Part shown: positions 7,081 through 50,233 of the stretch, in pieces
How positions within the stretch are numbered: position 1 is the first letter of the stretch
How the letters are laid out: every line of letters begins with the position of its first letter
Assembly (NCBI GenBank): GCA_964428015.1
Contig: CAYRWR010000008.1
Location: 8,916-72,915 of the forward strand
Direction of reading: 5' to 3'
DNA length: 64,000 nt
Origin: an uncultured Brevinematales bacterium
Lineage (GTDB): Bacteria > Spirochaetota > Brevinematia > Brevinematales > CAYRWR01
Made by a program: the position numbers and the translations under genes
The notes under the pieces: generated by a model
What the model saw: only the letters and a program-made list of their open reading frames with translations
Databases searched by the model: none
What the model was told of the DNA's origin: nothing

Positions 7081-9372
7081 TTGGGGAGCCAGATGAAACG
7101 TTTCGGGACATTTTCCGGAGTATTTGTACCTAATGTGCTGACCATCTTCGGGGTGGTGTTATTCTTCGGGACGGGGTCTCTGGTCGGAAATGCCGGTCTG
7201 CTGGGCTCCCTGCTGATAATTGTCATTGCCAATCTGATTACATTTTTTACCGCCCTTTCCATGTCTGCTATTACCACCAATATCCGCATCAAAGGAGGAG
7301 GGGCTTATTTTCTGGTGAGCCGCAGCCTGGGACCGGAAATGGGGGGAGCTATCGGGCTGACCCTGTATTTTGCCCAGATTTTTTCTATCGCGTTTTATAT
7401 TACCGGCTTCAGTCTGTCGCTGCAGCCTTTTTTTCCTCAGGTTGATATCCTGTTCATCAAGTTTGTCACCCTGGGGGTTCTGACACTTTTATCTATTTTC
7501 AGTGCTGAAATAGCCATAAAGGTCCAGTACGTGATTCTGGCCGCGGTGATGGCGGCAATTTTCTCGTTTTTATTCGGAAATCTGCGCTTTGATGTGCGGC
7601 CGGTACTGATGGGGACCTTCCCGGAACAAGGCTTCTGGAAGACATTTGCCCTGTTTTTCCCGGCCGTGACCGGTATCTTCGCGGGACTGTCCATGTCAGG
7701 AGATCTCAAAGAGCCCCACCGTAATATCCCAAAGGGGACTGTTTCCGCTATTCTGTTCACTTTTGCGATTTACGTCCTGATCGCGCTCAGTTTTAACTAT
7801 AACTACAGCAGTGCCGACCTCCTGGCTCATGATAGGATCATGATTGAGTCCGCCCTGGTGCCTTTTCTGGTGGTGATAGGAATCTGGGCAGCTACACTTT
7901 CTTCAGCCATCGGTATGGTGCTGGGAGCCCCCCGTACCCTCCAGGCTCTGTCGCGCGACCAGATCATGCCGCGATTTCTGGGAAAGGGCAGCGGCCCGGC
8001 AGATGAACCGCGGGTAGCCATGGTGTTGAGTGTAGTCATCGCGGGAGGATTGCTGCTCATCCGCAGTCTGGATGATATCGCCAATATTCTGACTATGTTT
8101 TTCCTGTCTACTTATGGTATAGTAAATGTGATCGCCGCGGTGGAGCTCCTGATCAGCAATCCTGCCTACCGCCCCCGCTTCAGGGTGCCCTGGTACATCA
8201 GTCTTCTGGGAGGGTTAGGGTCCTTTACCGCCATGTTTTTTATTGATCATTGGGCCACCCTGGTAGCCATAGTAGTTATTGTATTGATTTACTTTTTTAT
8301 TGCCAGGCGGCAGCTGCGTACCGACTGGGGGGATATCCGTAAGGGGTTCTGGGCCAGTGTAGCCGAGATCGCCCTGCAGAAGTATGAGAAATATCAAGAA
8401 CACCCCCGGAACTGGCGACCCCATATCGCTATTTTTGAAAATATTCCTCATATGCGGGAATCTCTGTATGATATTGCCAGTCTGATAGCCGGAAAAAGCG
8501 GGCTGGTTTCCTATTACCGCTTTGTGCAGGCCAACCTGGATCATCTGGGAGAGAGCAGTGATGAATTGGAAGAATTGAAATCCAGTCTGGAAGAAAAGAC
8601 CAGAGGATATGTCTACCCTGAGATCATTTATACCCTGCAGGACAGGAATGCCCACCTGGTGGCTCTCCAGGCTGACGGGATCGGTACTTTCAAGGCTAAT
8701 ACCATAATCTCTGATTTTCAACTGGAGGGAAAGACCCTGGAAGAGCACCTGAGCCGCCTCAGCCACTATGATACCTTGAAAAAAAATGTGATCTTGGTCA
8801 TGGATTCTACCACTCAGGTAGAGCCGGAAGATCGTATTGATGTCTGGCTGTCCGGTTTTCAGGCTAATATTTCCCTGATGCTGATGCTGCCCTTTCTGAT
8901 AACCCGTAACGCGGACTGGTCTGGTACCCGGGTGGTGATCAGGATGGTAGTCCGCACTGACCAACAGAAAGAAAATTCTGAAAAAAGCCTGCGCGGATTC
9001 CTGGCACAGGGCCGTATAGATGCCGAAGTACAGGTCATTTCCTTGGGAATGGAAGAGGTTAACCAGGCTGAAAAAACTGTGGCCAGAGAAAATAATGCGG
9101 AAGAAAAGCAGATGAAGAGAAAAGGTGTGTTCCATCGCTTCCGGAATTTCCTGGAAAATCTGGAGCAGCGCCGCTATAGTGAAGTGGACAGACAGCGTAT
9201 CAGAGACATTATCAGGGAGAAGTCCCAGGATGCACGGTTGGTACTGCTAGGGGTGCATGTGCCTGATGCTTCTTCAGCGGGCAGCGCCGCCCGGGACCTG
9301 AAAAAACTGCTTGCCGGATTACCCCGTACACTATTGGTCAAGGGACGACACAATATAAATCTGTTTATATAA
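7081..9372 (+). CDS. cation-chloride cotransporter (SLC12/CCC)-like APC-superfamily permease with large cytosolic C-terminal domain
   Basis: 763 aa. The N-terminus FGTFSGVFVPNVLTIFGVVLFFGTGSLVGNAGL and about 12 TM helices match the CCC/AA_permease pattern. The ~330-aa hydrophilic C-terminus resembles the SLC12 C-terminal domain. TTG 7081 is 6 nt after AGGAGG; ATG 7093 is an alternative start. Confidence 0.8.
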   Translation: MGSQMKRFGTFSGVFVPNVLTIFGVVLFFGTGSLVGNAGLLGSLLIIVIANLITFFTALSMSAITTNIRIKGGGAYFLVSRSLGPEMGGAIGLTLYFAQIFSIAFYITGFSLSLQPFFPQVDILFIKFVTLGVLTLLSIFSAEIAIKVQYVILAAVMAAIFSFLFGNLRFDVRPVLMGTFPEQGFWKTFALFFPAVTGIFAGLSMSGDLKEPHRNIPKGTVSAILFTFAIYVLIALSFNYNYSSADLLAHDRIMIESALVPFLVVIGIWAATLSSAIGMVLGAPRTLQALSRDQIMPRFLGKGSGPADEPRVAMVLSVVIAGGLLLIRSLDDIANILTMFFLSTYGIVNVIAAVELLISNPAYRPRFRVPWYISLLGGLGSFTAMFFIDHWATLVAIVVIVLIYFFIARRQLRTDWGDIRKGFWASVAEIALQKYEKYQEHPRNWRPHIAIFENIPHMRESLYDIASLIAGKSGLVSYYRFVQANLDHLGESSDELEELKSSLEEKTRGYVYPEIIYTLQDRNAHLVALQADGIGTFKANTIISDFQLEGKTLEEHLSRLSHYDTLKKNVILVMDSTTQVEPEDRIDVWLSGFQANISLMLMLPFLITRNADWSGTRVVIRMVVRTDQQKENSEKSLRGFLAQGRIDAEVQVISLGMEEVNQAEKTVARENNAEEKQMKRKGVFHRFRNFLENLEQRRYSEVDRQRIRDIIREKSQDARLVLLGVHVPDASSAGSAARDLKKLLAGLPRTLLVKGRHNINLFI

Positions 9373-9437
9373 AAATCTTTTTAATCCCTGAAAAAAGATA
9401 GAATTAATAGGCTTGCAGAGTTTCAGATGCAAAATAC

Positions 9438-9508: not shown

Positions 9509-10783
9509 ATGAAGTCTTTAAAGTTTTTGATGATGCTGACCGTACTTAGCCTGGGGCTTGGTTATGCCGGGGCGGAAGACCCCGCACCTTCCAAACCTAA
9601 ATTCGGCTTTGGTATTGAATTTGGTAATGTTACTATTAACGGTACCAATTATAATCAAATCAGGATGCAGCCTGACCTCGCCCTGGGGAAATTCGGCATC
9701 GGGCTGGATCTCAATATCGAATTCGATGCCAATGGCAAGATCCGCGCTGAAGAATGGACCAGCTGGCAGGCCATACTGGCCAAGATCACCTATATCCGGT
9801 TTGGTAAAAAATTCGAGAAACCAGTCTATGTAAAACTAGGCGGTATCAACGATTTTACCCTGGGACACGGGCAGATCATGTATCAATACAACAATATGCT
9901 GAACTATCCCAACGTCAAGAAGCTGGGCCTGGCCTTTGATCTTGATTTAAAATATGCTGGATTTGAAAGCATGCTTGATAACATTTTAAATCCTGATATA
10001 TTAGGGATTCGTGTTTTTGGTCGACCATTAATCAATCTTAAACTTCCAATTATCAACTCTTTGGAAATTGGAGCTTCGTATGTAGTTGATACTGACCCCT
10101 TGAACACAGTTTCCAATGCCTCACCCTACCTTTTCACCGATAATCCTCTGTCCCGCCCTGTGGGTGTCTGGGGCCTGGATCTGGGTGCCATTGTCCTCAA
10201 GAATTTTGTGGTGGATATGCTGGCTTATGCTGACTTCGTAGCTATCGAAGGTAAAGGGACAGGAGAAATCATGGGTGTAGCCGGGAAACTGATCTCAGTG
10301 ATCCCCTACCGCCTGGAAGTCCAGATTCTGCAGTCAAAATTTATCACCCGCTATTTCGATACTTTTTATGACGGTTCCAGAGCAGCCCTGTACAATAAAC
10401 TGGACACCTATACCAATAGTTACGCCGGACTGCTATTCAGTTCCGGGTTGTCGATTCTGGATGATAAACTGGCTTTCCTCATCACGATTAGAGATGCCTT
10501 TAATGATTCCATTCTCCCTGAGCTCCAGTTTGATTTCAAGCTGAGCAAAGACCTGCTGAAAAAAGTGGGCTTCACATTCAGCTGGTATAGAAAGGAAATT
10601 TTCTTTTTCACCGATATTTTCAAATTTGAAGATGTTAATTCTGTCATGATGACAGAACTGCAGTATATGGTGTCTGATAACCTGGCTCTGATCATCAATT
10701 ACAAGAGGACTTTCGAACTGGATTCTTCCGGAAACGTAGTCCCCTTCACCACCACCAGTATCAGTACCAAGATGTCATTTTAG
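9509..10783 (+). CDS. secreted protein, probable outer-membrane beta-barrel, unknown family (paralog of the C-terminal part of the next gene)
   Basis: ATG 9509 follows AGGAGG. Signal peptide MKSLKFLMMLTVLSLGLGYAGA. Alternating-hydrophobic strands and a C-terminal ...STKMSF (terminal Phe). Clear similarity to residues ~330-420 of the FecR-domain protein. Confidence 0.6.
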   Translation: MKSLKFLMMLTVLSLGLGYAGAEDPAPSKPKFGFGIEFGNVTINGTNYNQIRMQPDLALGKFGIGLDLNIEFDANGKIRAEEWTSWQAILAKITYIRFGKKFEKPVYVKLGGINDFTLGHGQIMYQYNNMLNYPNVKKLGLAFDLDLKYAGFESMLDNILNPDILGIRVFGRPLINLKLPIINSLEIGASYVVDTDPLNTVSNASPYLFTDNPLSRPVGVWGLDLGAIVLKNFVVDMLAYADFVAIEGKGTGEIMGVAGKLISVIPYRLEVQILQSKFITRYFDTFYDGSRAALYNKLDTYTNSYAGLLFSSGLSILDDKLAFLITIRDAFNDSILPELQFDFKLSKDLLKKVGFTFSWYRKEIFFFTDIFKFEDVNSVMMTELQYMVSDNLALIINYKRTFELDSSGNVVPFTTTSISTKMSF

Positions 10784-13376: not shown

Positions 13377-16226
13377 ATGAAAAAACTGATTTGGCTGCTG
13401 GTATGTTTTCTACCCTGGCAATGGGCAGGGGCTTTTGGAAAGAATAAAGTGACCTATCATGAATATAACTGGTATATTCTGGAATCTCCTCATTTCAGGA
13501 TCTATGTGACAGAACTGGACCAGAGCTTATCCAACCTGATACTGGATACTGCTGAACAAGCTTATGCTCTGCATGCCCGTCAATTTGGCTATCAACCCAA
13601 ATATAAAATAAAAGTCCTGTTATATCCCAACCAGATAGATTTCCAGCAAAACAATGTAACCACTGATTTTATTGGTGCCGGTACGGGCGGCTTTACGGAG
13701 TTTATTAAGGGCAGGGTGGTATTGCCTTTTTCCGGTGATTATGCCAACTTTGAGCACATTCTGTCACATGAGTTGACCCATGCTTTTCAGGGTTATACCT
13801 GGGGTCGGGGTTATATGGGTATCTCCGCTCTGATGGATATCAATGTGCCTCTCTGGTTTATAGAAGGCATGGCGGAATATGCCTCCATCGGCCTGGATAA
13901 TGAAGCTGAAATGATGGTCAGTGACGCTCTCTATCATGGTAATTTACCCAACCTGATGCAGTTAAGTTACCTAAATCTGCTTCCCCCCGATTACTATTTC
14001 TTTGTATATAAAGAAGGACAACTTTTTTTCTACTTTGCGGAACAGAAATATGGAACCAATATTCTGCCCCGTCTTAATGAATCAGTGGCATCCAACCGGA
14101 ATCTAAATGTCATTCTCACCAATGTCTTTCATAAGGATTTGGAAACTCTTAATGATGAGTTTTTTGATTTCCTTAAAGCACGCTATCTGCCTGAAAGTAT
14201 AGGCAAAGCCAATATCACTATGCAGGCCAAACGCATCTTGAATAAAGACACTCGCTTCAATATGAATCCGGTGTATGTGGACAGCAGCCGCATTGCCTTT
14301 ATCAGTGACAGACTGTTATATCCCTCAATTGTGATCGCCGACCGCAGGAAACAGACTCTGAAACGTCTGATAAAAGGCGGTTTTGATGAAAATTATCTGG
14401 AATTTCAGTATGGAAAAAGGAATAACCTTTCCATGGCCGGGACTAATATTCTGTGTTTTGTGAGCCGAAGCGGAGGCAGGGACGCTATTCAGTTATTAGA
14501 CATTAACACTCTAAAAGAGAAAACCCTGGATCTTCCCTTTAAAGTGATTCACTCACCGCAGATATCACCGGATGGAAAGAAGATAGTACTCTCCGCCAAC
14601 CGGGAGCATCAGGAAGATATCTTTATATATGAAATCGAGACAGGAAATCTGGTTCAGGTGACACAGGATATTTATTTTGATACCCAACCCCGCTGGCTGA
14701 GCAGTAATAAAATCGTTTTTGTGACCAGCCGGTATCATCCTCAGGACCAGGATAATAAGGATATCGTGATCTTTGACCTGGATAGTAATCAGGTGCTCAC
14801 CAGGCTGGATAGCGGATTTTCTGATGAATACCCTACCATTTCGCCGGACCAGCGTTATGTGGGATTTGTCAGTGCCAGCCGGCACCCCGTGCTGATGATT
14901 TATGACCGGGATAGCGCCCAGGTTTGGCAGGAGCTGGCACCCCGCGGGGGAATATTGTCTCCGCAGTTTGGCACCTCCAATCATATCATCCTGACTGCTT
15001 ACCGGGACAACCAGTTTAATATCTACGAATACAAGGCACAATTTAAAACCAAGGCCACCAATGTGGTTATCGAAGATATGGCAGGCCGTCAGGCAGGTGT
15101 GCCTCTGGAGTTTTTGTCACGAATGACGCTGCCCCCCCAGCCCTATAAACTGGAGCTGAGTATCGACAATCTGATAGGAGCTTTTGCCCTTAATTCTTCC
15201 CTCAAGGGTATGGCACTGGTAGGGATTATGAATGTGAGCGATCTGTTGGGTGATCACCGCTTTCAGCTGGTATTGGACTCACAGATTCAGATACAGACTA
15301 ATTTTTTTGATTATATCAATGCCGATCTCAGTTATCACAACGAGAAAAACAGGATCAATTATGGTTTCCGGTTTTTTAATTTTAGTAATTTCTTCTATGA
15401 ATTCCATACTTTTGAATCATTTACCCTGCTGGAGAGGAGTTATGCCTGGAGTGCGGGTCTATATGTTTTTGCCTCCTATCCTTTTTCAACATTCTCCCGT
15501 CTGGATCTGACCCTGGGCATCAGGGGATACAAATATATAGAAAATGTCACTCTGGTAGGCAGTAATTACCAGTATGAATACAGTCATCTGAACCGGGAAA
15601 CCCTGCAGCTGACCTGGGTCTATGATGCTACCCTGTGGGACTACACCGGCCCTGTTGACGGGATACGCATGGAAGCAGGGATAGAACAGTCATTCGCCAT
15701 TTTGTCTAATTCCATTCAATATACCCGTCTGCTGTTTGATTTCCGGCACTACATTATGCTGTTCCCCAATTATTCGCTGGCTTACCGGGCAGTGCTGGGT
15801 AAATCTCTGGGCAGAGACAGAATGGACTATCCTTACACCGTGGGGGGATTCAATTCTGTCCGGGGATATGATCTTTTCAGTTTCACCGGAGATAGTCTTT
15901 ACCTGATCAATCTGGAGTTCCGGTTTCCTCTGATCATAGACTGGACTATTGGATTTCCATTTCCGCTCCGGCTGCCTACTATCTGGGGAGTATTATTCTG
16001 GGATATGGGTTCAGCCTGGAAATGGGATGATGGATATAATCTTTATTATTACCAGGGAGAGAACCTGGTACTGGATGACCTGAAAATTGGTCTGGGTTTT
16101 GGTTTTCGACTGGTTCTTTTACCGGGGATTAAATTCATGGTGGATGTAGCTACACCCTATGACGGCCGGGGCGTACCCTCCTTATCCACCTGGAGGTCTT
16201 TCTGGCAGATAGGAGTCGATTTTTAA
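13377..16226 (+). CDS. large outer-membrane protein: HExxH peptidase-like domain + TolB/PD40-type beta-propeller + Omp85/surface-antigen (D15) beta-barrel
   Basis: Signal peptide MKKLIWLLVCFLPWQWAGA. HILSHELTHAF...WFIEGMAEY (gluzincin-like). PD40-like repeats (SPQISPDGKKIVLSAN, YPTISPDQRYVGFVSA). C-terminus GGFNSVRGYDLFSF...INLEFRFPL...GVLFWDMGSAW...WQIGVDF is typical of the Omp85 barrel. Confidence 0.75.
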   Translation: MKKLIWLLVCFLPWQWAGAFGKNKVTYHEYNWYILESPHFRIYVTELDQSLSNLILDTAEQAYALHARQFGYQPKYKIKVLLYPNQIDFQQNNVTTDFIGAGTGGFTEFIKGRVVLPFSGDYANFEHILSHELTHAFQGYTWGRGYMGISALMDINVPLWFIEGMAEYASIGLDNEAEMMVSDALYHGNLPNLMQLSYLNLLPPDYYFFVYKEGQLFFYFAEQKYGTNILPRLNESVASNRNLNVILTNVFHKDLETLNDEFFDFLKARYLPESIGKANITMQAKRILNKDTRFNMNPVYVDSSRIAFISDRLLYPSIVIADRRKQTLKRLIKGGFDENYLEFQYGKRNNLSMAGTNILCFVSRSGGRDAIQLLDINTLKEKTLDLPFKVIHSPQISPDGKKIVLSANREHQEDIFIYEIETGNLVQVTQDIYFDTQPRWLSSNKIVFVTSRYHPQDQDNKDIVIFDLDSNQVLTRLDSGFSDEYPTISPDQRYVGFVSASRHPVLMIYDRDSAQVWQELAPRGGILSPQFGTSNHIILTAYRDNQFNIYEYKAQFKTKATNVVIEDMAGRQAGVPLEFLSRMTLPPQPYKLELSIDNLIGAFALNSSLKGMALVGIMNVSDLLGDHRFQLVLDSQIQIQTNFFDYINADLSYHNEKNRINYGFRFFNFSNFFYEFHTFESFTLLERSYAWSAGLYVFASYPFSTFSRLDLTLGIRGYKYIENVTLVGSNYQYEYSHLNRETLQLTWVYDATLWDYTGPVDGIRMEAGIEQSFAILSNSIQYTRLLFDFRHYIMLFPNYSLAYRAVLGKSLGRDRMDYPYTVGGFNSVRGYDLFSFTGDSLYLINLEFRFPLIIDWTIGFPFPLRLPTIWGVLFWDMGSAWKWDDGYNLYYYQGENLVLDDLKIGLGFGFRLVLLPGIKFMVDVATPYDGRGVPSLSTWRSFWQIGVDF

Positions 16227-33279: not shown

Positions 33280-34257
33280 ATGTCTGATTGGGTGAAAATC
33301 CTGAATACCTATGGTGCAAGACGGGAACCCTGTCTGTTTGTGCTGGATTATGAATTATTGTCCCCCCGTATCTACCCTTTATCTGAATTAAACCGGGAAG
33401 ATATATATTATATTCTGCCTTCCGGTGGAAACGCCACCGGTCAGACTTTAAATCACAATTTTAGTTTTAAAAAATATCCCGTAGCCCCGGAAATTTATCA
33501 GTACTCTTTTGATCAAGTGAAAGAAGAATTTATAAAGGGCAACACCTTTCTTTTGAACCTGAGTTTTCCTACTCCAGTAGAATGTGATCTGACGCTGCGT
33601 GAAATTTTTCAGGCCAGTCAGGCACCTTACCGCCTGCTGTTTAGGGATGAATTTGTGGTATTTTCACCTGAAAGTTTTGTGCGAATACAGAACGATACCA
33701 TTTCTACTTTTCCCATGAAGGGTACCATTGACGAGGGACTGCCTCATGCCCGCAAACAGCTCCTGGATGACCCTAAAGAACTAGCCGAGCACACCGCCAT
33801 AGTGGATCTCCTGCGTAATGATCTCAGCAGGGTAGCCCGAAATGTCCGGGTCCCGCGCTTCCGGTATATAGAAGCCATTAACGCTATGGATAAAACCCTG
33901 CTTCAGGCCAGCTCCGAGATCAGGGGAGACCTGGCGCCGGACTGGAGGGACCGCTTGGGTGATATATTTGCGGAACTTCTGCCGGCGGGATCAATTAGCG
34001 GTACTCCCAAGATCAGTACCTGTGCAATTATTTCAAGGGTAGAAAATTACCGGAGGGGATACTTTAGCGGTGTGTTTGGGGTATTTGACGGGGAGAGTGT
34101 AGACAGTGGAGTGATGATACGCTACCTGGAACGTCAGAATCAACAACTGGTATTTAAAAGCGGAGGCGGACTGATGGTGTACAGTGAATGGGAAAAGGAA
34201 TACCGGGAAATGCTGGAGAAGGTCTATGTACCGATTTTTAGAAACCATTCGATGTAA
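33280..34257 (+). CDS. pabB: aminodeoxychorismate synthase component I (short chorismate-binding enzyme)
   Basis: 325 aa. FPMKGTI...ELAEHTAIVDLLRNDLSRVA...LPAGSISGTPK...RGYFSGVFGVFDG...DSGVMIR are the chorismate-utilising enzyme motifs. Confidence 0.8.
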   Translation: MSDWVKILNTYGARREPCLFVLDYELLSPRIYPLSELNREDIYYILPSGGNATGQTLNHNFSFKKYPVAPEIYQYSFDQVKEEFIKGNTFLLNLSFPTPVECDLTLREIFQASQAPYRLLFRDEFVVFSPESFVRIQNDTISTFPMKGTIDEGLPHARKQLLDDPKELAEHTAIVDLLRNDLSRVARNVRVPRFRYIEAINAMDKTLLQASSEIRGDLAPDWRDRLGDIFAELLPAGSISGTPKISTCAIISRVENYRRGYFSGVFGVFDGESVDSGVMIRYLERQNQQLVFKSGGGLMVYSEWEKEYREMLEKVYVPIFRNHSM

Positions 34258-34822
34258 AGACGGGGTGTTTCAAGCACTGGATCTGCACCAATCCCGCCTG
34301 GATAGGACATTTTCTGAAGTGTGGGGGCAGTCAGCTCCCTGGAAAATCTCCCACATGCTTCCTCTAGTCCCTCCTGTAGGGCTTTTTAAGTGTTCTCTGA
34401 GATATGATAGAGAAAATCTGGATTGGAGAGTTATACCTTATTTGCGTCAGGACATTTCAGCCTTAAAGATAAAAGAAGCACCCCATCTCGATTATCACCT
34501 CAAATACAGCGACCGGGGGGCTTTGGAGGCTTTGCGCGGAGAACTTTTACCTGGTCAGGAAGTTTTAATCACTCAAAAGGGATTTTTGACAGATACCACG
34601 TTTTGCAATATTGCTCTCTTTAACGGACATAGTTGGATTACACCACGGCACTGCCTGCTGGCAGGCACCCAGAGAGAAACCTTGCTGAAACAGGGAGTAG
34701 TGCAGGCTGGTGATATTTCTGTGCAGGACATCTGCCATTTTCAAAAAATAGCTTTGTTCAATGCCTTAATGATCTGGGATGAAAGGATTGAACTGGATAC
34801 CGAACGCATCAGTCTGGATTAA
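34226..34822 (+). CDS. pabC: aminodeoxychorismate lyase-like (fold-type IV PLP enzyme)
   Basis: ATG 34226 gives MYRFLETIRCKDGVFQALDLHQSRL, typical of short PabC, and overlaps pabB by 32 nt. ...GFLTDTTFCNIALFNG...TPRHCLLAGTQR. The track ORF starts earlier at 34184. Confidence 0.65.
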   Translation: MYRFLETIRCKDGVFQALDLHQSRLDRTFSEVWGQSAPWKISHMLPLVPPVGLFKCSLRYDRENLDWRVIPYLRQDISALKIKEAPHLDYHLKYSDRGALEALRGELLPGQEVLITQKGFLTDTTFCNIALFNGHSWITPRHCLLAGTQRETLLKQGVVQAGDISVQDICHFQKIALFNALMIWDERIELDTERISLD

Positions 34823-34989
34823 GATACATTTTTAACCCATTTGATGCACTAAAATGCCTAATATTTAATCATATAAATCAGGTGTGATTGTAAATCGTTC
34901 AATTATTCTCCGTAATTTCTTATCCAAAGCGCTGTACAATATTTTTAATTGTATATATATAAAAGAATTAGAAAATATTCTTATATAGT

Positions 34990-35005
34990 TGGCACAGCTT
35001 TTGCA
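34990..35005 (+). promoter_or_regulatory. sigma-54 (-24/-12) promoter
   Basis: TGGCAC-AGCTT-TTGCA is an exact match to TGGCAC-N5-TTGCW. It lies in an AT-rich intergenic region and is the only such match I found on either strand. Confidence 0.55.
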
Positions 35006-35014
35006 ATATATAAT

Positions 35015-35137
35015 ATGAATATGAGAAAAGGAGGATTTGTTAAAAAATCCGGTTCTCAAGGAGGCATTGATGGTTCTGTGTTCTACCGTCCCTGCCATCG
35101 TAAGAAAACAATGACAGGGTACAGTTCCTGGTTTTAA
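35015..35137 (+). other. mini-transcript downstream of the sigma-54 promoter: small basic ORF (38-40 codons) or sRNA
   Basis: The predicted start site falls near 35015-35017, at ATGAATATG. The reading frame gives M(NM)RKGGFVKKSGSQGGIDGSVFYRPCHRKKTMTGYSSWF*. Two AAGGAGG motifs lie inside it; the second sits 5 nt before an alternative 14-codon ORF (35070-35114). An intrinsic terminator starts 3 nt after the stop. Confidence 0.3.
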
Positions 35138-35139
35138 AA

Positions 35140-35176
35140 ATGCCGGCTCTCACCGGCCGGCTGTTTTCATTTTTTT
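35140..35176 (+). terminator. rho-independent terminator of the mini-transcript
   Basis: GCCGGC (35142-35147)/GCCGGC (35156-35161) stem followed by TGTTTTCATTTTTTT. Confidence 0.55.
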
Positions 35177-35216
35177 CAAAGACACACCTCCCAAAGAAAA
35201 CGCACCTCCAAATCAA

Positions 35217-35250
35217 AGAAAAGGGGACGCCTTCAGGCGCCCCCCTTTTC
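35217..35250. terminator. bidirectional terminator (serves the GH31 gene on the minus strand)
   Basis: GGGGACGCC-TTCA-GGCGCCCC hairpin (35223-35245) flanked by an A-run and a T-run, 16 nt from the GH31 stop at 35266. Confidence 0.75.
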
Positions 35251-35265
35251 TATTTATGCCGTAAA

Positions 35266-37626
35266 TTAAAATTTTATTGTAGCTTTATCATCCTTTACCG
35301 GAAACTCTTTGTCTTTAAAGACCACTCTGTTGACCTGAGCCGGGACATGCAGCACCAGTGCCGGATGGGGCTGGGCCTTTCCCTCGGACAGCGATACTTC
35401 CAGATAAAGTGAATCACCTGAGAGACTGGTTTTGTATTGCCACAGGGAAAAATTGCCTGCCTGGTATCCCAGGCTGATGGTGTCATCCTGATAGCGCAAG
35501 CCTACTGCTTGTCCTTTTTCATCCGGCTGTATCCACAGGCCTATGACACTGTCGGATTTGATATTCATGGTGGAATCATGATCCTGCTCATAAACCGGGA
35601 TTATAGAGCCAGCGCGAAGGTATACCGGAATATCTTCCAGGGTAATGACCTGATCCATTGTACCCTGATAATACTTACCGTCCCTCAGGCTTTTCCAGCT
35701 GCCGGCTGGCAGAGTGACAGTCAGGGTGTCGGATTTTTTCAGGGGCTGCAGGATAGGTGCTACCAGAATATCCCGTCCCAGCAGGAATTCCTGATCTATA
35801 TCCAGGAAATCCCGGCCGTATTCCAGCCACAGGGGTCTTACCATAGGCAGTCCGGAGGTATGGCTCTGTCTGGCCAGGGTATATATGTAGGGCAGCAGCC
35901 GATAGCGCAGCCGCATATATTTGCGGATGATAGGGAGCTCCTTTTGGAACTGGTAGGGTTCCTGCATGCGGGTACCCTGTTCAGTATGGTCACGCAGGAA
36001 GGGAAGAAATACCCCCAGCTGTATCCAGCGGGTAAACAGTTCGCCATTGGGACTGCCGGTATAGCCGCCCACATCTGCCCCGGAAAAAGGCACACCGGAA
36101 AGTCCCAAATTCAGGGTCATGGACAGATTCATCCCCAGATGTTCCCAACTGGCGGTATTGTCTCCTGTCCAGATAAATGCATAACGCTGCAAGCCGGCAT
36201 AGCCGGAACGGGTGAGCAGAAATACCCTCTGGTCCTTCAGGAGTTTCTGCACTTCGGTATGAGTGGCATTTATCATGGTATGCCCGTATATGTTGTGCAG
36301 ATACTTATGTTCCCGGGGATAGCCCTGGTTGTTTTGAATGACACGGTTGGGGAGGGTTCCATTAGGCCCTGAAAAGACAGAGGGTTCATTCATGTCATTC
36401 CAGAATCCACTGATACCCAGTTTAAGTAGGCGGCTATAATACTTTCCCCACCAGGAGGCGGTCTGTGCGGCAGTAAAATCGGGGAAATAACACATGCCCG
36501 GCCAGACTGCTCCTTTGTAAGGAGAGCCCTTGTACATCACGTAGACCTGTTCCCGAAGACCCTGTTCACAGACATCATAGGCCGGATCAGCTTTGATTCC
36601 TGGGTCTACTATAGCTACTGTCCTGACTCCAAAAGTCTGGAGCTGCTGATTCATCTTTTGGGGCTGGGGATAGGCCTGAGGGTCATAGGTAAAGGACATC
36701 TTGTTGCTCATAAAACCGATATCCAGATAAAGGACATCCAGGGGCAGATCATGGGACCGGAACGCCTGGACTACTTCCATTACCTGGGCCTGATTTGTAT
36801 AGCTGTAGCGGGATTGATGAAAGCCGAATCCATAGAGAGGAGGGAGGTAAGCATGGCCGGTAAGATCAGCGTATTTTCCCAGAATGGCGGGGGTATCACC
36901 TCCCAGCACATGGATCCTGGTATAATAATCGTTGACGGTAATTTCATGGCCCGAAGTTTTGAAATCGTATTCCTGACGGCCGGGATTATCCACCAGCATC
37001 CCGTATTGGTAATCTGTACCCAGTCCCAGGTAGAAAGGGATAGCAGAGTAAATGGGGTCGGTCTCAGAAGTGTATTTATAGGTATCGCTGTTGTATAGAC
37101 CGAATTTGCGGCCGGTCAGTTCAAATTTTCCGGTCTTTTCCCCCAAGCCGAAGACTCTTTCTTTATTAGAGCCACCTAGTATTAAGATCTTTTCTTTATC
37201 TGCCTGATAAAACACCTGGAAACGATGGGTCAGCTTATCTTTCTGGAAACAGCTTAATTCCAGTGCCGAACGGCTGATCTCCCATGTGTTCTCTCCTTGT
37301 CGCAATACCAGGGTGTCTTTTTCCTCCTGCCAGTCTGGTTTTATCCCTGTCAGCGGTGTGACTACCGCGTAAGAGGGATAGGGCGGCAGTTGATTGGTAA
37401 AGGCACATTCCAGGTATAGGTCACCCTGGCCGCTGACCCTGACCCGAGCCAGGGCCTGCTCATATTTAAGCATCAGATCATTGCGGTCATAGGTGATTTC
37501 CAGCAGCCTGCCGCTACTGGTCCAATCCGGTCCGCTGGGTTTGAGGTTGCGTCTGGCCATAGCACAGGCAGCCATGCTGAGTATGCTCAGGCCAGCTGCT
37601 AAAATGATTAAAAAGGTGGGCTTCAT
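35266..37626 (-). CDS. glycoside hydrolase family 31 alpha-glucosidase (lipoprotein/secreted)
   Basis: 786 aa. Signal MKPTFLIILAAGLSILSMAAC. Catalytic region GISGFWNDMNEPS and PFSGADVGGY. SD AGGAG. 14 nt downstream of the LacI-family gene. Confidence 0.9.
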   Translation of the reverse strand: MKPTFLIILAAGLSILSMAACAMARRNLKPSGPDWTSSGRLLEITYDRNDLMLKYEQALARVRVSGQGDLYLECAFTNQLPPYPSYAVVTPLTGIKPDWQEEKDTLVLRQGENTWEISRSALELSCFQKDKLTHRFQVFYQADKEKILILGGSNKERVFGLGEKTGKFELTGRKFGLYNSDTYKYTSETDPIYSAIPFYLGLGTDYQYGMLVDNPGRQEYDFKTSGHEITVNDYYTRIHVLGGDTPAILGKYADLTGHAYLPPLYGFGFHQSRYSYTNQAQVMEVVQAFRSHDLPLDVLYLDIGFMSNKMSFTYDPQAYPQPQKMNQQLQTFGVRTVAIVDPGIKADPAYDVCEQGLREQVYVMYKGSPYKGAVWPGMCYFPDFTAAQTASWWGKYYSRLLKLGISGFWNDMNEPSVFSGPNGTLPNRVIQNNQGYPREHKYLHNIYGHTMINATHTEVQKLLKDQRVFLLTRSGYAGLQRYAFIWTGDNTASWEHLGMNLSMTLNLGLSGVPFSGADVGGYTGSPNGELFTRWIQLGVFLPFLRDHTEQGTRMQEPYQFQKELPIIRKYMRLRYRLLPYIYTLARQSHTSGLPMVRPLWLEYGRDFLDIDQEFLLGRDILVAPILQPLKKSDTLTVTLPAGSWKSLRDGKYYQGTMDQVITLEDIPVYLRAGSIIPVYEQDHDSTMNIKSDSVIGLWIQPDEKGQAVGLRYQDDTISLGYQAGNFSLWQYKTSLSGDSLYLEVSLSEGKAQPHPALVLHVPAQVNRVVFKDKEFPVKDDKATIKF

Positions 37627-38608: not shown

Positions 38609-38637
38609 ATTATACTCTGGAAACGTTTCCATGTCAA
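38609..38637 (-). promoter_or_regulatory. sigma-70 promoter with embedded LacI-type operator (autoregulated regulator-GH31 operon)
   Basis: Minus strand reads TTGACA-TGGAAACGTTTCCA-GAG-TATAAT (17-nt spacer), then GGAGG and ATG 38591. The 14-bp perfect palindrome is at 38618-38631. Confidence 0.65.
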
Positions 38638-39297: not shown

Positions 39298-39326
39298 TTG
39301 ACATGGAAACGTTTCCATGCTAATAT
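39298..39326 (+). promoter_or_regulatory. sigma-70 promoter with embedded LacI-type operator (GH13-GH13-GH63 operon)
   Basis: TTGACA (39298-39303)-TGGAAACGTTTCCA (39304-39317)-TGC-TAATAT (39321-39326). The first 20 nt are identical to the promoter at 38618-38637. Confidence 0.65.
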
Positions 39327-39351
39327 GGATATACCCTATAGGAGGTTCTCT

Positions 39352-41427
39352 ATGAAAAATCTCATTCTGATTTTAATCACATTTTTAGCATTTACCGCCT
39401 GTCAACAGCCTAAGACAGACAGCACTCAGGTCCAGGTCAGAGCAGACGTCTACCCCGACCTGGATACCCGCATCAATCTGGGCAGTCTGTACTTCAACAG
39501 CCGGGACCTGGCCTGCAAGAGCCCCTTCGGCGCGGTGACGATAGGCCAGAGTGTGACCCTCCATATCTATACCGGAAAGGGGGACGTCAGAAAAGTCAAC
39601 GCCGTCCTGACCCGCCAGGACATGGTGGGGAATTCCACCATGGAAAAATATCAAAAATATAAGACCCTGCCTATGAGTATCACCGGACAAACTAATGGAC
39701 AGGATATCTGGGAAGTCACCTTTAGTATTGACAAACTGGGGGTATATGGGTACCATTTTGAGCTGTTCAAAACAGACGAAGATGCCATCGTTCTGGCGGA
39801 TAACCAGAATCAGGTCAAGGTCCCTTACGTCAACATCAAAGGTACCGGCGGAGAGGGCCGTATCACTCCCCTTAAAAAGTATAAACTACCCTACACCCTG
39901 ACCGTGTACCAGCCTGATGATAAACTGGCTCCCTGGACTGCCAACATGATCATCTATTACATCTTTCCTGACCGCTTTAAAAACGGTAATAAAAAGAACG
40001 ACCCCATTCCCGGAAAAACCCTGTTTTATGACCAAAAGACTGTGGAATTTCACGCCAACTGGAATGACCCCAAACCCTGGGTGCCGGGAAAATCCGACGG
40101 TAATGAGACTGATGATAAGGAATATTGTAACGATTTTTACGGTGGTGATCTGGAGGGAGTCATCCAAAAGCTGGACTATCTTAAAACTCTGGGGGTCAAT
40201 GTCATCTACCTTAACCCCATCTTTTTCGCCCCTTCCAACCATAAATATGACACTGCCGACTATAAAAAAATAGATCCTGCCTTTGGAGACCTGGCTGTTT
40301 TTAAAAAGCTGGTAGCGGAAGCCAAAAAACGGGATATCCACATCATCCTGGATACCTCACTCAACCATTCCGGCAGTGATTCGGTGTACATGGACCGCTA
40401 TGGTAAATACCCTGGCCTGGGAGCCTTTGAAAAAGAGGTCATCCATACCGATTCTCCTTACTATGACTGGTATGAGTTTAATCCCAAAGCCACCAACCCC
40501 GACCAGATGTACAACCAATGGGCTAACCCCACTCTGGCTAATCTTAAGGAAAGCGACTCTTACAAAAAATTCGCCTATAAAGATTCCGACAGCGTGACCC
40601 GTTACTGGCTGACTCAGGGCGCGGGAGGCTGGCGTATGGATGTGACACCCTGGGTCAGCGATGACTTCTGGCGGGAATGGCGAAATGCCATCCGAATTGA
40701 TAATCCCGAGGCTCTTACTGTCTCTGAAGTCTGGTTTGACGCTTCCAAGTACCTGGTAGGGGATATGTTTGATACCACTATGAACTATATTTTCCGGCAG
40801 TGTGTGCTGGATATGGCCCGGGGCAAGAGCGCGGAAACCGCTATGCAGGGTCTGGAAATGATCCGGGAAAATTATCCAGCTCCGGCCTTTAAACGGGCTA
40901 TGAATCTGTTGTCCAGTCATGACCTGCCCCGGGTACTGTGGGAAGTGGGCTATAAAGAATATGGTCAGACGGATTATGCAGAATTCCGGGCCCGGATGCT
41001 GCTGGCAGTCTCCTTTCAGTTCACCTATCCCGGCGCACCTACCATCTATTACGGTGATGAGATCGGCCTGACCGGGGGCAATGACCCCTTCAACCGGGGC
41101 CCCTATCCCTGGAAAGAAGACGGCGGCAATTATGGCGACCCCAGTCTGTTGGCTGATTTCCAGAAGCTGGCTGCTCTGAGGCGGTCCCACCCTGTCTTTC
41201 AGGAAGGAGAGCTGAAACTGCTCTATACTGATAAAAATCTGGTAATTATCCAGCGGCAGGATAAACAGGAAAAGATTGTGCTGGTATTTAATAATTCCAA
41301 ACAGGAAAAAGGCCTCCCTGCAGGAATCATTCCCATGAATGAATACAGGGACCTGTTCCGTGACTCTACACTCAGCATTTCTGACACTACCATGATACCG
41401 GCCCTGTCCTTTTTTATCTTGAAATAA
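39352..41427 (+). CDS. GH13 alpha-amylase-family enzyme (neopullulanase/cyclomaltodextrinase-like) lipoprotein
   Basis: ATG 39352 follows AGGAGG (the track ORF starts at 39256, upstream of the promoter). Lipobox LITFLAFTAC. GH13 regions ILDTSLNHSG, GGWRMDVTPW, VSEVW, LLSSHD. Confidence 0.9.
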   Translation: MKNLILILITFLAFTACQQPKTDSTQVQVRADVYPDLDTRINLGSLYFNSRDLACKSPFGAVTIGQSVTLHIYTGKGDVRKVNAVLTRQDMVGNSTMEKYQKYKTLPMSITGQTNGQDIWEVTFSIDKLGVYGYHFELFKTDEDAIVLADNQNQVKVPYVNIKGTGGEGRITPLKKYKLPYTLTVYQPDDKLAPWTANMIIYYIFPDRFKNGNKKNDPIPGKTLFYDQKTVEFHANWNDPKPWVPGKSDGNETDDKEYCNDFYGGDLEGVIQKLDYLKTLGVNVIYLNPIFFAPSNHKYDTADYKKIDPAFGDLAVFKKLVAEAKKRDIHIILDTSLNHSGSDSVYMDRYGKYPGLGAFEKEVIHTDSPYYDWYEFNPKATNPDQMYNQWANPTLANLKESDSYKKFAYKDSDSVTRYWLTQGAGGWRMDVTPWVSDDFWREWRNAIRIDNPEALTVSEVWFDASKYLVGDMFDTTMNYIFRQCVLDMARGKSAETAMQGLEMIRENYPAPAFKRAMNLLSSHDLPRVLWEVGYKEYGQTDYAEFRARMLLAVSFQFTYPGAPTIYYGDEIGLTGGNDPFNRGPYPWKEDGGNYGDPSLLADFQKLAALRRSHPVFQEGELKLLYTDKNLVIIQRQDKQEKIVLVFNNSKQEKGLPAGIIPMNEYRDLFRDSTLSISDTTMIPALSFFILK

Positions 41428-47068: not shown

Positions 47069-47656
47069 TTAAATAAACAGATATTCCTGACGGATAATAG
47101 GTTCTCCGATTTCCAGTTCCAGAGCACTGATCTCATTATCATCCACCCACTTGGGTACCCGGGTACACCGGAACTGGTGTTCCAGACCGGATTGACGGAT
47201 CAATTCTATAGAACGTTTGATGCGGCGGATGTCAATATCAGGTAAATCTACAGTCTTTCCGTATTTGCTCCAGGAGTTTTTAATATCCATGGCGATAAAG
47301 TCCACCAGCCCGGAATCGATGGCTTCTTCCAATACCTCAGGTAGATACCCGTTGGTGTCAAGTTTGGTTTTAAAAGCATGCTGCTGGCACCAGCGGAAGA
47401 ATTTTTTCAGTCCTTTCCAGCTGAGGCTGGGCTCACCCCCGGTCACACATACCGCCTGGATTTTTCCGCGCCGGGCTATGAGGTAATCCTGAATATCTTT
47501 GACTTCCAGGTCGGGGAGTTTTTCGTACTGGTGAGGGTAAATCAAATCCTGATTGTAGCACCAGGGACAGCGGAAATTACAGCCGGCTGTGAACAGAGTA
47601 CAGCAGGTCAGCCCGGGATAATCCACCAGACTGACCCTTTCCATGCCTTTAAACAT
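47069..47656 (-). CDS. nrdG: anaerobic ribonucleoside-triphosphate reductase activating protein (radical SAM)
   Basis: VSLVDYPGLTCCTLFTAGCNFRCPWCYNQDL (CxxxCxxC cluster) and GVCVTGGEP-like QAVCVTGGEPS. An alternative start ATG 47644 (MERVSL...) would avoid overlap with the small upstream ORF. Confidence 0.9.
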   Translation of the reverse strand: MFKGMERVSLVDYPGLTCCTLFTAGCNFRCPWCYNQDLIYPHQYEKLPDLEVKDIQDYLIARRGKIQAVCVTGGEPSLSWKGLKKFFRWCQQHAFKTKLDTNGYLPEVLEEAIDSGLVDFIAMDIKNSWSKYGKTVDLPDIDIRRIKRSIELIRQSGLEHQFRCTRVPKWVDDNEISALELEIGEPIIRQEYLFI

Positions 47657-47811: not shown

Positions 47812-49953
47812 TTAAATCTCCTTATTCATTTCCAATGTATCTAAATATACTCCATACTTTTCCAGTTCTGCTTCGCTATGAGGGAGAGGACAGTGCGCGT
47901 GCTCTCCTCCGATATAGCCATGCACCGGGCAGACGGAAAAAGTGGGGGTGATAGAGAAATAGGGCAGACGGTATTGGCTGGCGATGATCCGGACCAGATT
48001 GGACATGGATTCCGGCCGGATATTTTTTTCACCCAGAAAGACGTGTATTACCGTGCCGCCGGTAAATTTGGACTGGAGGCTGTCCTGATGGTCCAGCAGC
48101 TCAAAAATGTCCGTAGTATGGTGGACGGGAAGATGCACAGAATTGGTATAGTAGGGGACCTCATGGGTACCGGAGTGCAGTATATCGGGCCAGGTCTTTT
48201 TATCGTTTTTAGCCAGACGGTAGGATGCCCCTTCCGCGGGGCTGGCTTCCAGATTGTAAAGATGACCTGTCTCTTCCTTATACTGGTCCATTCGGTTCAG
48301 CATAAAGTCCAGTACTTCTTCCGCAAAATCTTTGGCTTCGGGTTGGGCATAGTCTTTTTTGAGGAGGTTCATTACTGCCTCGTTCATACCCAATAGCCCT
48401 ATGGTAGAAAAATGATTGGTCCAGTAGTGCCCCGTGCGTCTTTTAATTTCCGCCAGGTAGACGCTGGTAAAGGGATATAGACCTTTTTCCGTTAATTCCT
48501 CCACCATCTTACGCTTGATCTCCAGTGAAGAGCGGGCTTTGTCCATGACTCCCCCCAGCAGCTGGAAGAATTCCCGCTCTGACTGAGCCTGGTAGGCCAG
48601 GCGAGGGAGGTTAATAGTCACTACCCCGATACTGCCGGTCATAGGATTGGCTGAAAACAATCCGCCCCGTTTAACTCCGCTATCGTGACTGGTTTCTGCA
48701 GATTTACCCAGCATCTGTTTTTTGACCTGTCGGTTATCGAGACGGAGGCGGCAGCACATGGAGCGCGCGTCTTCTTCGCTCATGTCGGAATTGATAAAAT
48801 TGCTGAAATAGGGTGTACCGTACTTGGCGGTCATTTCCCACAGAGGCTGGTAGGCAGGATTGGTCCAGTCAAATTCGCGGGTGATGTTATAAGTAGGGAT
48901 AGGAAAGGTAAAAGGCCGGCCATGTTTATCGCCCTCCAGCATCACTTCCGCGAAGGCACGGTTGATAAGGGTCATCTCTTCAGTATAATCCGCATAGGCA
49001 CTGTTATGTAATTTTCCCCCGATGATCACAGCCTGTCTGGCCAGATAGGAGGGTACAGTCAGGTCAAAGGTCAGATTGGTAAATGGTGTCTGAAAACCGA
49101 CCCGGGTGGGTACATTCAGGTTGAACACAAATTCCTGCATGCACTGCTTTACATCTTTATATTCCAGGCGGTCATGCCGGATAAAAGGGGCCAGCAGGGT
49201 GTCAAAATTAGCAAAAGCCTGGGCTCCGGCGGCTTCACCCTGAAGGGTGTAGAAAAAGTTTACGATCTGGCCCAGGGCGGTGCGTAAATGACTAGGTGGA
49301 CCTGAAGATATCTTGCCACTCACTCCCCCGAACCCCATCATCAGGAGCTGTTCCAGATCCCAGCCCACGCAGTAGGCAGACAGTAGCCCCAGGTCATGAA
49401 TATGAAAATCTCCCCTGCGGTGTGACTCGCCGATCTCCGGGGTGTAGATACGGGTTAGCCAGTAGTTGGCGGTCAGCGATGAAGCTATGTGTGAATTTAG
49501 ACCCTGCAGAGAATAGCTCATGTTGGAGTTTTCATTGACTCTCCAGTCCTGGAGCTGAAGATAATCATCGATTGTTTTGAGACTTTCCTGAAAGGCCTGA
49601 TCCATATGTCGGGCTTCACTCCGTTTGGACCGGTACAGGATATAGGCTTTGGCAGTACGCCGGTAGCCCATATTCATGAGGGTGTCTTCCACCATATCCT
49701 GAATATGTTCGATGTCTACTACTTCTGTTTCCAGCCGGTGAATCACAAAACCGGCACATTGCCAGGCTTCTCCCGGGCTGCCTTCACCACAAGCCTCAAA
49801 AGCCTTGGCTACTGCGCCAGCTATACGGCTGATGTCAAAGTCGACGACTCGCCCGTCCCGTTTCCGGACCAGACTGGCTTTACCTTCGGTTTTTTTGTTT
49901 TTCTGAATCTCCAATACTAACTGTTCCACGATATCCCCTCCGCTTATTTGCAT
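47812..49953 (-). CDS. nrdD: anaerobic ribonucleoside-triphosphate reductase, large (catalytic) polypeptide lacking the glycyl-radical tail
   Basis: 713 aa. N-terminal ATP-cone (LVRKRDGRVVDFDISRIAGAVAKAF). Core motifs MCCRLRLD, NLPRLAYQ, PYYTNS. Ends after CPVHGYIGGEHAHCP... with no RxxGY motif. Confidence 0.9.
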   Translation of the reverse strand: MQISGGDIVEQLVLEIQKNKKTEGKASLVRKRDGRVVDFDISRIAGAVAKAFEACGEGSPGEAWQCAGFVIHRLETEVVDIEHIQDMVEDTLMNMGYRRTAKAYILYRSKRSEARHMDQAFQESLKTIDDYLQLQDWRVNENSNMSYSLQGLNSHIASSLTANYWLTRIYTPEIGESHRRGDFHIHDLGLLSAYCVGWDLEQLLMMGFGGVSGKISSGPPSHLRTALGQIVNFFYTLQGEAAGAQAFANFDTLLAPFIRHDRLEYKDVKQCMQEFVFNLNVPTRVGFQTPFTNLTFDLTVPSYLARQAVIIGGKLHNSAYADYTEEMTLINRAFAEVMLEGDKHGRPFTFPIPTYNITREFDWTNPAYQPLWEMTAKYGTPYFSNFINSDMSEEDARSMCCRLRLDNRQVKKQMLGKSAETSHDSGVKRGGLFSANPMTGSIGVVTINLPRLAYQAQSEREFFQLLGGVMDKARSSLEIKRKMVEELTEKGLYPFTSVYLAEIKRRTGHYWTNHFSTIGLLGMNEAVMNLLKKDYAQPEAKDFAEEVLDFMLNRMDQYKEETGHLYNLEASPAEGASYRLAKNDKKTWPDILHSGTHEVPYYTNSVHLPVHHTTDIFELLDHQDSLQSKFTGGTVIHVFLGEKNIRPESMSNLVRIIASQYRLPYFSITPTFSVCPVHGYIGGEHAHCPLPHSEAELEKYGVYLDTLEMNKEI

Positions 49954-50040: not shown

Positions 50041-50228
50041 AGTTGTCTGCAGCAACACGAACAGGTCTTCCGACTTATGAGGCTAAGGTCTTTCCTGGGA
50101 AGCAAGCTGTTCTCCCGACCTTCGCGGTTTCCCACTGGACAGGTGCTGGCTTCCTTGTTCCTCATTTACGGCTGCGGGGGCAGTCGGGGATTCTCACCCC
50201 ATTCCCTTCGAATATCCGCGTGCTGTGA
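50041..50228 (-). promoter_or_regulatory. cobalamin (B12) riboswitch in the nrdD leader
   Basis: The minus strand reads GAAGGGAAUGGGGUGAGAAUCCCCGACUGCCCCCGCAGCCGUAA (50209-50166). This matches the conserved AGGGAA / GGUG..AAUCC / CCCGC..C.GUAA core. It is followed by the B12-box-like GAAGCCAGCACCUGUCC (50153-50137). Confidence 0.8.
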
Positions 50229-50233
50229 TTCTT

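Follow-up and report, generated by a model that had tools for sequence, protein, structure and literature searches.

A conserved small transcription unit with a sigma-54-type promoter in Brevinematales genomes

A small transcription unit on the + strand, with a sigma-54-type promoter at its start and intrinsic terminators at its end, lies in the 443-nt gap (34823-35265) that separates a pabC-like gene from a convergent GH31 gene in a 64-kb stretch of DNA from an uncultured Brevinematales bacterium (referred to below as the window; coordinates are window positions). As comparison with related genomes showed, the unit is conserved in Brevinematales; it appears to be independent, and its product is most likely an activator-dependent sigma-54 regulatory RNA or mini-mRNA, a reading assigned a probability of roughly 0.65. 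A small terminator-bounded unit driven by a promoter of this type had been proposed in a preliminary description of the sequence; the unit itself was upheld by the comparison whereas the 40-residue protein suggested as its product was not.

Syntenic loci were reached through homologs of the GH31 protein in L086 (Logan DRR438484, GH31 65% identical, GH31/pabC gap of 435 nt), L087 (GCA_964537555.1, GH31 56% identical, gap of 458 nt) and L089 (JGI, GH31 56% identical, gap of 71 nt with a single hairpin), all of which share with the window the gene order amylases-LacI-GH31 facing pabC-pabB. Conservation in related genomes, to which the preliminary description had pointed as a check on the unit, was evident from L086 and L087, both of which keep the promoter, a hairpin designated hp1, a mini-ORF (ORF, open reading frame), a terminator designated T1, two CACCTCC motifs and a second terminator designated T2. 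Among the window, L086 and L087, identity was 76-85% in the promoter block, 73-86% in T1 and 59-67% from the T1 tail to the second CACCTCC box, as compared with 35-46% at four-fold degenerate sites of GH31, which are saturated. The 3' half of the neighbouring pabC could not be aligned at the DNA level, and the segment from the end of the mini-ORF to T1 was 30-48% identical, i.e., neutral. Because identity in the conserved blocks is far above that of the saturated GH31 sites and the pabC 3' half is unalignable, the unit is under purifying selection. A repeat or mobile element was rejected as an explanation since the unit is single-copy in the window.

The promoter was recognized from TGGCACAGCTTTTGCA at 34990-35005 (+), which reads TGGCAC-AGCTT-TTGCA and is an exact fit to TGGCAC-N5-TTGCW. 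The earlier claim that this match is the only one was confirmed, as no other site with 0 or 1 mismatch was found on either strand of the 64 kb. Taken one nucleotide further upstream, TTGGCACAGCTTTTGCA at 34989-35005 consists of a -24 element TTGGCAC (34989-34995), the spacer AGCT and a -12 element TTTGCA (35000-35005), with GG at -24/-25, GC at -12/-13 and sigma-54 spacing (consensus YTGGCACGR-N3-TTGCW). The arrangement TTGGCAC-N4-TTTGCA was found in the window, L086 and L087 with the spacers AGCT, ATTG and GTCC, respectively. In an alignment extended to six genomes by adding L095, L097 and L099, described below, TTGGCA, T-N-TGC and TATATA were invariant while the 4-nt spacer had fully diverged, and no indel was noted between the -24 and -12 blocks, the only indel (in L086) being 3' of the -12 element. 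The invariant TATATA is part of an AT block that, together with TGAATA, spans 35006-35021 (+). A relaxed pattern, TGGCA[CT]-N6-TGC[ATG], run over 160 kb of Brevinematales DNA, matched nowhere but at the six orthologous sites. Given these elements at fixed spacing in six Brevinematales genomes, the promoter type was probably named correctly in the preliminary description, and dependence on sigma-54, alone or in combination with sigma-70, is quite probable. By standard sigma-54 geometry, transcription is predicted to start at approximately 35016-35018, 12 nt past the -12 C at 35004.

The relationship of the unit to a protein-coding gene became apparent from weak, collinear matches of a profile of the three units to both ends of a cassette in L095 (Brevinematales bacterium GCA_013177895.1) that carries a gene for a 66-aa protein (9179-9379, -). 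The same gene was found in L097/L098 (Spirochaetes bacterium GWF1_51_8; L097 12298-12498, -) and in L099 (approximately 10074-10274, -), where the annotated gene is instead a 57-aa ORF on the other strand. In each case the promoter, TTGGCA(C/T)-N4-TATGC(A/T/G) followed by TATATA, precedes an AGGAGG Shine-Dalgarno (SD) site located 5-6 nt ahead of the ATG, and the stop codon is followed by AATGCCTCCAAATCATACA and a terminator. The protein contains four invariant cysteines (MCPLKE.C.FY...VFCDSELFLLNKDC...RPRPMHM.PLG), and its ORF is conserved in L095, L097 and L099 with a third-position substitution pattern typical of coding sequence; no significant match to it was found in Pfam, NCBIfam or PDB. 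Promoter, 5' untranslated region (UTR), SD site, CCTCCAAATCA box and terminator are common to the cassette and the window unit, and the cassette is convergent with GH31 in L095 and L099, as in the window, but not in L097. In the window, L086 and L087, on the other hand, the coding sequence is absent and its place is taken by hp1, a second SD-like motif, the mini-ORF, T1 and a second box complementary to SD, and no remnant of the 66-aa protein was detected in these interiors as DNA or protein similarity. On these comparisons, the window unit is what surrounds the coding sequence in a small-protein gene cassette, a shell of promoter, UTRs and terminator, filled with another interior; the 66-aa cassette is apparently the older form of the unit.

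The location of the cassettes also bears on whether the gap contains a promoter at all, the alternative being that the pabB-pabC operon has a long, structured 3' UTR made up of the conserved sequence. No + strand terminator was predicted between the pabC stop (34822) and T1, so pab transcripts probably read through into the unit. Against an origin as pab 3' UTR, the module of L095, L097 and L099 comes after another gene, a 496-aa ORF that has a terminator to itself, pabC is kept without the module in L089, and the conserved block has exact sigma-54 architecture. A pab 3' UTR is thus a very improbable explanation.

Within the predicted transcript, the two AAGGAGG motifs noted in the preliminary description were present at 35028-35034 and 35058-35064 (+), and their proposed role as internal SD sites gained support for the second, which recurs with a short ORF of 14, 14 and 17 codons. 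The first has no start codon at usable spacing in the window. Its homolog in L095, L097 and L099 is the ribosome-binding site from which the 66-aa gene is read, the sequence AGGAGGATTTG, identical in the window, L086 and L087, being aligned with AGGAGG-N5/6-ATG of that gene. The 3' end of SD-like motif 1 is predicted to be sequestered by hp1 (GGAUUU / AAAUCC, 35033-35050, +), the loop of which is 6 nt long in the window, 4 nt in L086 and approximately 19 nt in L087, whereas the stem does not vary and hence shows no covariation. A 19-nt direct repeat that is 84% identical (35040-35058 and 35134-35152) connects hp1, at its 3' arm, with T1, at its 5' arm. The repeat could allow alternative pairing but is not conserved in L086 or L087, and an antiterminator formed from it was discounted on that ground. 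Interpretation of the GGA motifs as a CsrA sponge was likewise set aside as these are too few and the second SD-like motif of L087 has no GGA.

SD-like motif 2 lies 5 nt ahead of the ATG at 35070, which opens a mini-ORF of 14 codons (MVLCSTVPAIVRKQ, 35070-35114, +) with the counterparts MVFGTLVPALGKKA and MVRFAQQAQSATALKQW in the relatives. The possibility that function lies not in the RNA as such but in this peptide of 14-17 residues or in the act of its translation, the ORF then being a regulatory one, was suggested by conservation of AAGG(A/G)GG-N5-ATGGT in the three genomes, by a nearly constant length with a sole indel of 6 nt and by differences between the window and L086 that fell on codon positions in the order 3>1>2 (8:6:4), with the replacements R/K, I/L and S/T. 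Strong AGGAGG SD sites are also used by the organism, as judged from the occurrence of AGGAGG 4-7 nt ahead of ATG in many real window genes. However, nucleotide identity in the body of the mini-ORF was 41-59%, which is near neutral, and the peptide is therefore weakly constrained; the L087 form is polar and 3 residues longer, an open frame of 14 codons is unsurprising by chance, no gene past T1 is available for a leader peptide to control, and the peptide is too short and insufficiently hydrophobic for a type I toxin. A product of this kind is considered a minority possibility, and should ribosomes read the mini-ORF, its importance would more likely reside in the translation event than in the residues encoded. 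An upstream extension of the mini-ORF (25 aa from TTG 35037) was rejected since L086 has TGA directly before the ATG.

A different outcome was obtained for the leaderless basic protein of 38-40 residues put forward in the preliminary description. A 40-codon ORF (35015-35137, +) does exist, opening with ATGAATATG at 35015, the predicted transcription start, and ending with a stop at 35135-35137. The frame is not conserved, however: the second ATG was found only in the window, the first is TTG in L087, and the L086 frame yields an unrelated peptide. No homologs were found at E<=0.001 among 1.84 billion representative proteins, the codon score was 1.5 as opposed to 11.95 +/- 5.4 for real 40-codon windows (96% of which scored >2), the ORF was never called as a gene in the annotation, and a sigma-54 start at 35016-35018 would exclude the first ATG. 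As a conserved gene, the micro-protein was refuted by these comparisons, and a leaderless product of 38-40 residues can hardly be entertained. On the minus strand, ORFs of 77 and 58 aa were dismissed on account of poor codon scores, a frame through the unit was open in the window and L086 and closed after 15 codons in L087, and an NTG before ATT-TGG-AGG failed as a start codon as all four bases occur at N.

The intrinsic terminator expected at the end of the mini-transcript was confirmed as T1 (GCCGGCU- or GCCGGCC-loop-GGCCGGC and a U-run, 35142-35176, +), which consists of a hairpin at 35142-35161 followed by a T-run. The T1 stem has one and the same sequence in the window, L086 and L087, with a variable loop, as in hp1, and a U-rich + strand tail; because the minus-strand tail of L086 is not U-rich, T1 is assigned to the + strand. 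The 66-aa gene cassettes have no T1. T2 (35216-35256, both strands; hairpin 35219-35248), common to the unit and the convergent GH31 gene, is bidirectional, with a tail that is U-rich on both strands, and shows compensatory pair changes across genomes (GCC/GGC to UCC/GGA, C-G to A-U and A-U to C-G). The transcript would thus be approximately 155 nt long if ended at T1 and approximately 240 nt if read through to T2. Without its terminator the RNA body folded modestly better than shuffled sequences (z = -2.0), the consensus fold of three sequences gave no positive covariation signal (covariation term +1.34), and, with the cutoff relaxed to E<=10, the unit's + strand still matched no Rfam family. 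Pairing of the 5' end with the 3' arm of T2, for which one coordinated change was noted in L086, was rejected, as the likeness is accounted for by the A-tract required in a bidirectional terminator.

Between T1 and T2 are two CACCTCC motifs (35185 and 35203) that were overlooked in the preliminary description. The first anti-SD-like motif (35185-35191, +) is half of an 18-nt tandem repeat and is conserved in the window, L086 and L087. The second is part of CGCACCTCCAAATCA (35201-35215, +), the core of which, CCTCCAAATCA, is invariant in six genomes and stands directly before the terminator. This 3' box is kept in L097 without a convergent GH31 gene and is hence part of the RNA made from the promoter strand. 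Over both strands of the window, 10 copies of AAGGAGG and 9 of CACCTCC were counted, two of each within 190 nt at this locus, where the SD and anti-SD copies form short tandem or direct repeats. The copy numbers of the two motifs co-vary, being 1:1 in 66-aa gene cassettes and 2:2 in window-type units, and this covariation is the best argument that the boxes may pair. In partition-function folding from the start to T2, the three window-type RNAs had an SD:anti-SD pairing probability of 0.45-0.62 and L095 one of 0.89-0.96, and in L086 and L087 the pairing was nested (SD-like motif 1 with anti-SD-like motif 2, and SD-like motif 2 with anti-SD-like motif 1).

From these features a mechanism may be proposed in which RNA polymerase with sigma-54 would bind TTGGCAC-N4-TTTGCA, an enhancer-binding protein would activate transcription from near 35016-35018, and transcription would stop at T1 or read through to T2. 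In distant relatives the promoter, 5' UTR, SD site, CCUCCAAAUCA box and terminator would flank the 66-aa gene; in the window lineage, without the coding sequence, the retained UTR shell would have gained a second SD-like motif, a weakly constrained ORF of 14-17 codons and a terminator in its interior, and its anti-SD box would have been duplicated. The CCUCC boxes would pair with the GGAGG motifs, such that RNA ended at T1 would expose the ribosome-binding site and read-through RNA would be self-masked. This self-masking model, with its open T1-ended form, is tentative, its odds being judged somewhat short of even. A more elaborate version, in which a small RNA was born from the UTR shell after loss of the 66-aa gene and became a two-terminator riboregulator by duplication of both the SD motif and the anti-SD box (CACCUCC, a mimic of the 16S rRNA 3' end) and by gain of an internal terminator, is rather doubtful. 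If it were true, the choice of terminator would yield either a self-masked RNA or SD/anti-SD-like seeds open to ribosomes or target mRNAs.

A number of observations weigh against an activator-dependent sigma-54 unit or against pairing within its RNA. The exact TGGCAC-N5-TTGCW motif is expected 0.09 times per window and occurred at least once in 8 of 100 dinucleotide shuffles, and sites with <=2 mismatches were at chance level (31 found as compared with 29.4 expected); the lone consensus match is mildly unexpected and thus suggestive, not compelling. No sigma-54 activator domain was detected among approximately 49 window ORFs scanned with Pfam, and GAFTGA and RpoN-box motifs were missing from every frame of the window, in agreement with the preliminary description, which had noted the lack of a nearby enhancer-binding-protein gene. 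No conserved upstream activator site or dyad was found in the alignments. SD:anti-SD pairing was approximately 0 in L097 and L099, and in the window, L086 and L087 it was not above that of context-shuffled controls. The motifs are invariant and hence show no base-pair covariation, and window-type sequences number just three. The complementarity amounts to just 5 bp, the CCUCC being contained in the invariant CCTCCAAATCA, of which pairing leaves the AAAUCA part unexplained. Finally, L089 lacks the unit, its 71-nt gap (L089 10308-10378) containing one bidirectional hairpin; because L089 has none, the unit is dispensable. The unit is thus present or absent among genomes at similar distance (L089 as compared with L086 and L087).

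Among the same unfavorable points are those that suggest an ordinary sigma-70-type promoter (TTGGCA, a 15-16 nt spacer and TAATAT), in which case the likeness to sigma-54 would be coincidental and the transcript constitutive or repressor-controlled. A promoter scan reported TTGGCA-16-TAATAT at 34989-35016, the sigma-70 form TTGGCA-N15/16-TAnnnT fits five of the six genomes, the invariant TATATA lies outside the sigma-54 consensus, and housekeeping promoters of the clade look alike, that of the amylase operon being TTGACA-N17-TAATAT; the failure to find an enhancer-binding protein or activator site is also as expected for sigma-70. However, with sigma-70 the invariant T-N-TGC would fall in the spacer, where conservation is unexpected, the spacer would be 15 nt in L086, and the -10 position of L097 reads TAGGTG, without the key final T, whereas its -24/-12 elements are intact. 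Furthermore, the distance from TTGGCAC to TGC is without indel despite full turnover of the sequence in between, and chance origin and persistence of a near-perfect YTGGCAC-N4-TTGCW in six genomes is unlikely. Sigma-54 is common among cultivated spirochetes, and activators can be encoded elsewhere in a genome; a literature search on rpoN or sigma-54 activators returned nothing relevant for Brevinematia. A promoter of the sigma-70 type only is unlikely but not negligible. Both promoter types can also coexist, as for glmY, which according to a passage in PMC3162934 citing Reichenbach et al. 2009 has a sigma-54 promoter that overlaps with one of the sigma-70 type; likewise, a sigma-70-type promoter may overlap the sigma-54-type promoter of the window.

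With respect to activator binding, the AT-rich inverted repeats described earlier, TACAAT-N7-ATTGTA and AAGAAT-N8-ATTCTT (34935-34982, +), are indeed present, although the role assigned to them as sites for an activator or integration host factor was not sustained: they are not conserved and probably arose by chance, and the proximal repeat is too near the -24 element. The sole candidate for an activator site is a moderately conserved block, ACTAAAATGC.CAA...TAATCA (34845-34872, +, alignment columns 26-50), which is located approximately 140 nt 5' of the -24 element, has no conserved dyad and lies at a different distance in 66-aa gene cassettes.

That the unit is a decaying, functionless relic of the 66-aa gene cassette, with T1 and T2 merely terminating pabC and GH31, was considered in light of the missing 66-aa coding sequence, the reduction of the L089 gap to 71 nt with one hairpin and the near-neutral mini-ORF body and segment before T1, where no gene was called. 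Decay would be expected to bring identity to the neutral level of 35-46%, whereas the promoter, SD motifs, hp1 stem, T1 and both anti-SD boxes are 60-86% identical with many invariant blocks, and the structured insertions (T1, second SD and second anti-SD) are common to three lineages. A relic is therefore improbable, and the preferred reading remains that of a conserved unit with a sigma-54-type promoter and a regulatory RNA or mini-mRNA as product.

With known sigma-54 small RNA units the window unit has in common a stand-alone intergenic position, a -24/-12 promoter, a short structured RNA and an intrinsic terminator. It differs from them in having no Rfam homology, in belonging to another phylum, in lacking an adjacent activator gene and in carrying SD-like and anti-SD-like motifs and a mini-ORF, and its sigma-54 dependence is predicted. 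Masking of SD by pairing between 5' and 3' UTRs has been described for icaR mRNA of Staphylococcus aureus (PMC3868564) and hbs mRNA of Bacillus subtilis (PMC5737220). As in these mRNAs, the GGAGG has a complement farther 3' within its own RNA, a conserved C-rich anti-SD box that stands just before the terminator. Unlike them, the pairing in the window is only predicted, and inconsistently so, amounts to 5 bp and has no substantial protein to regulate in this lineage. The short ORF with a strong SD site and a terminator 21-27 nt later resembles a leader-peptide attenuator, but this identity was rejected as no same-strand gene lies downstream, where T1 is succeeded only by the anti-SD boxes, then T2 and then sequence antisense to GH31; moreover, the unit has no regulatory codon runs or conserved antiterminator, and the T1-like repeat is specific to the window. 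A type I toxin-antitoxin system was rejected as well since the peptides of 14-17 aa are poorly conserved and polar in L087 and no promoter/terminator pair was found on the minus strand.

Assignment of the window to Brevinematia (Spirochaetota) followed from MurF homologs that were 45-72% identical and came from Brevinematia, Brevinematales, Thermospira aquatica and "Spirochaetes bacterium GWF1_51_8". All window proteins tested were singletons at 90% identity and the lineage is therefore rarely sampled. In addition to the pabC-like gene (34226-34822, +; Pfam Aminotran_4; identical to database protein P0001) and the GH31 gene (35266-37626, -; convergent with pabC and the small unit), the window encodes Omp85, FecR, HDOD and GGDEF proteins by Pfam, as well as a 949-aa protein (13377-16226, +) with an unusual fusion of a Peptidase_MA_2 domain and an Omp85 barrel. 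Homologs of pabC led to Bacteroidota loci without synteny, and outside the syntenic relatives the nearest pabC homologs of the pabB-pabC pair (33280-34822) were from Bacteroidales (Paludibacter), at approximately 40% identity or less and likewise non-syntenic, a likeness that could stem from an ancient horizontal transfer. An affiliation with Bacteroidetes, in which SD motifs would carry no meaning, was suggested by these pabC matches but rejected in view of the AGGAGG ahead of real starts, the Omp85 protein and the MurF placement. When the genome collection was scanned with GH31, only matches of <=42% identity were obtained, mostly to a generic GH31 motif, and exact database look-up of GH31 and of the 40-aa ORF gave no match. 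Logan contigs SRR13617029, SRR13617030 and SRR13617047 from the same organism all stop within the AT-rich segment 34841-34919, probably due to a drop in coverage rather than a repeat because no second copy occurs in the window. The organism of L087 was also present in the neighbouring run SRR13617028.

A metagenome scan for TTGGCAC-N5-TTGCA-N18-27-AGGAGGATTTG gave 4 matches, all unrelated. On an unrelated metagenome contig (L093 1238-1283, -; JGI Ga0256405_10000603), TTGGCAC-N5-TTGCA was noted 24 nt before an AGGAGG that precedes the ATG of a DnaJ/CbpA-like ORF, possibly a sigma-54-controlled chaperone gene. Elsewhere in the window, a LacI-type operator palindrome, TGGAAACGTTTCCA, occurs twice (38618-38631 and 39304-39317), one copy preceding the lacI-like gene and the other lying within a near-consensus sigma-70 promoter of the amylase operon (39298-39326); the block 39298-39364 was 78-94% identical in L086 and L087. 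An anaerobic ribonucleotide reductase operon containing nrdD (47812-49953, -) and a radical-SAM activase gene (47069-47656, -) is directly preceded by a full-length cobalamin riboswitch (RF00174, 62 bits, 50043-50233, -), and B12 presumably represses the B12-independent reductase.

To our knowledge, sigma-54-dependent small RNAs come almost only from Proteobacteria. The practical value of the present unit is modest until its expression and sigma-54 dependence are shown. The comparison of window-type units with the 66-aa gene cassettes points to a likely route from the UTRs of a protein gene to a regulatory RNA, and the co-duplicated SD and anti-SD boxes offer a simple, testable model of terminator-dependent self-masking. 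If the proposed reading is correct, the sigma-54 small RNA design would be extended to Brevinematia, a barely studied and mostly uncultured class of spirochetes, and the unit would provide a first handle on the sigma-54 regulon of this class, including the conserved, uncharacterised 66-aa protein with four cysteines.

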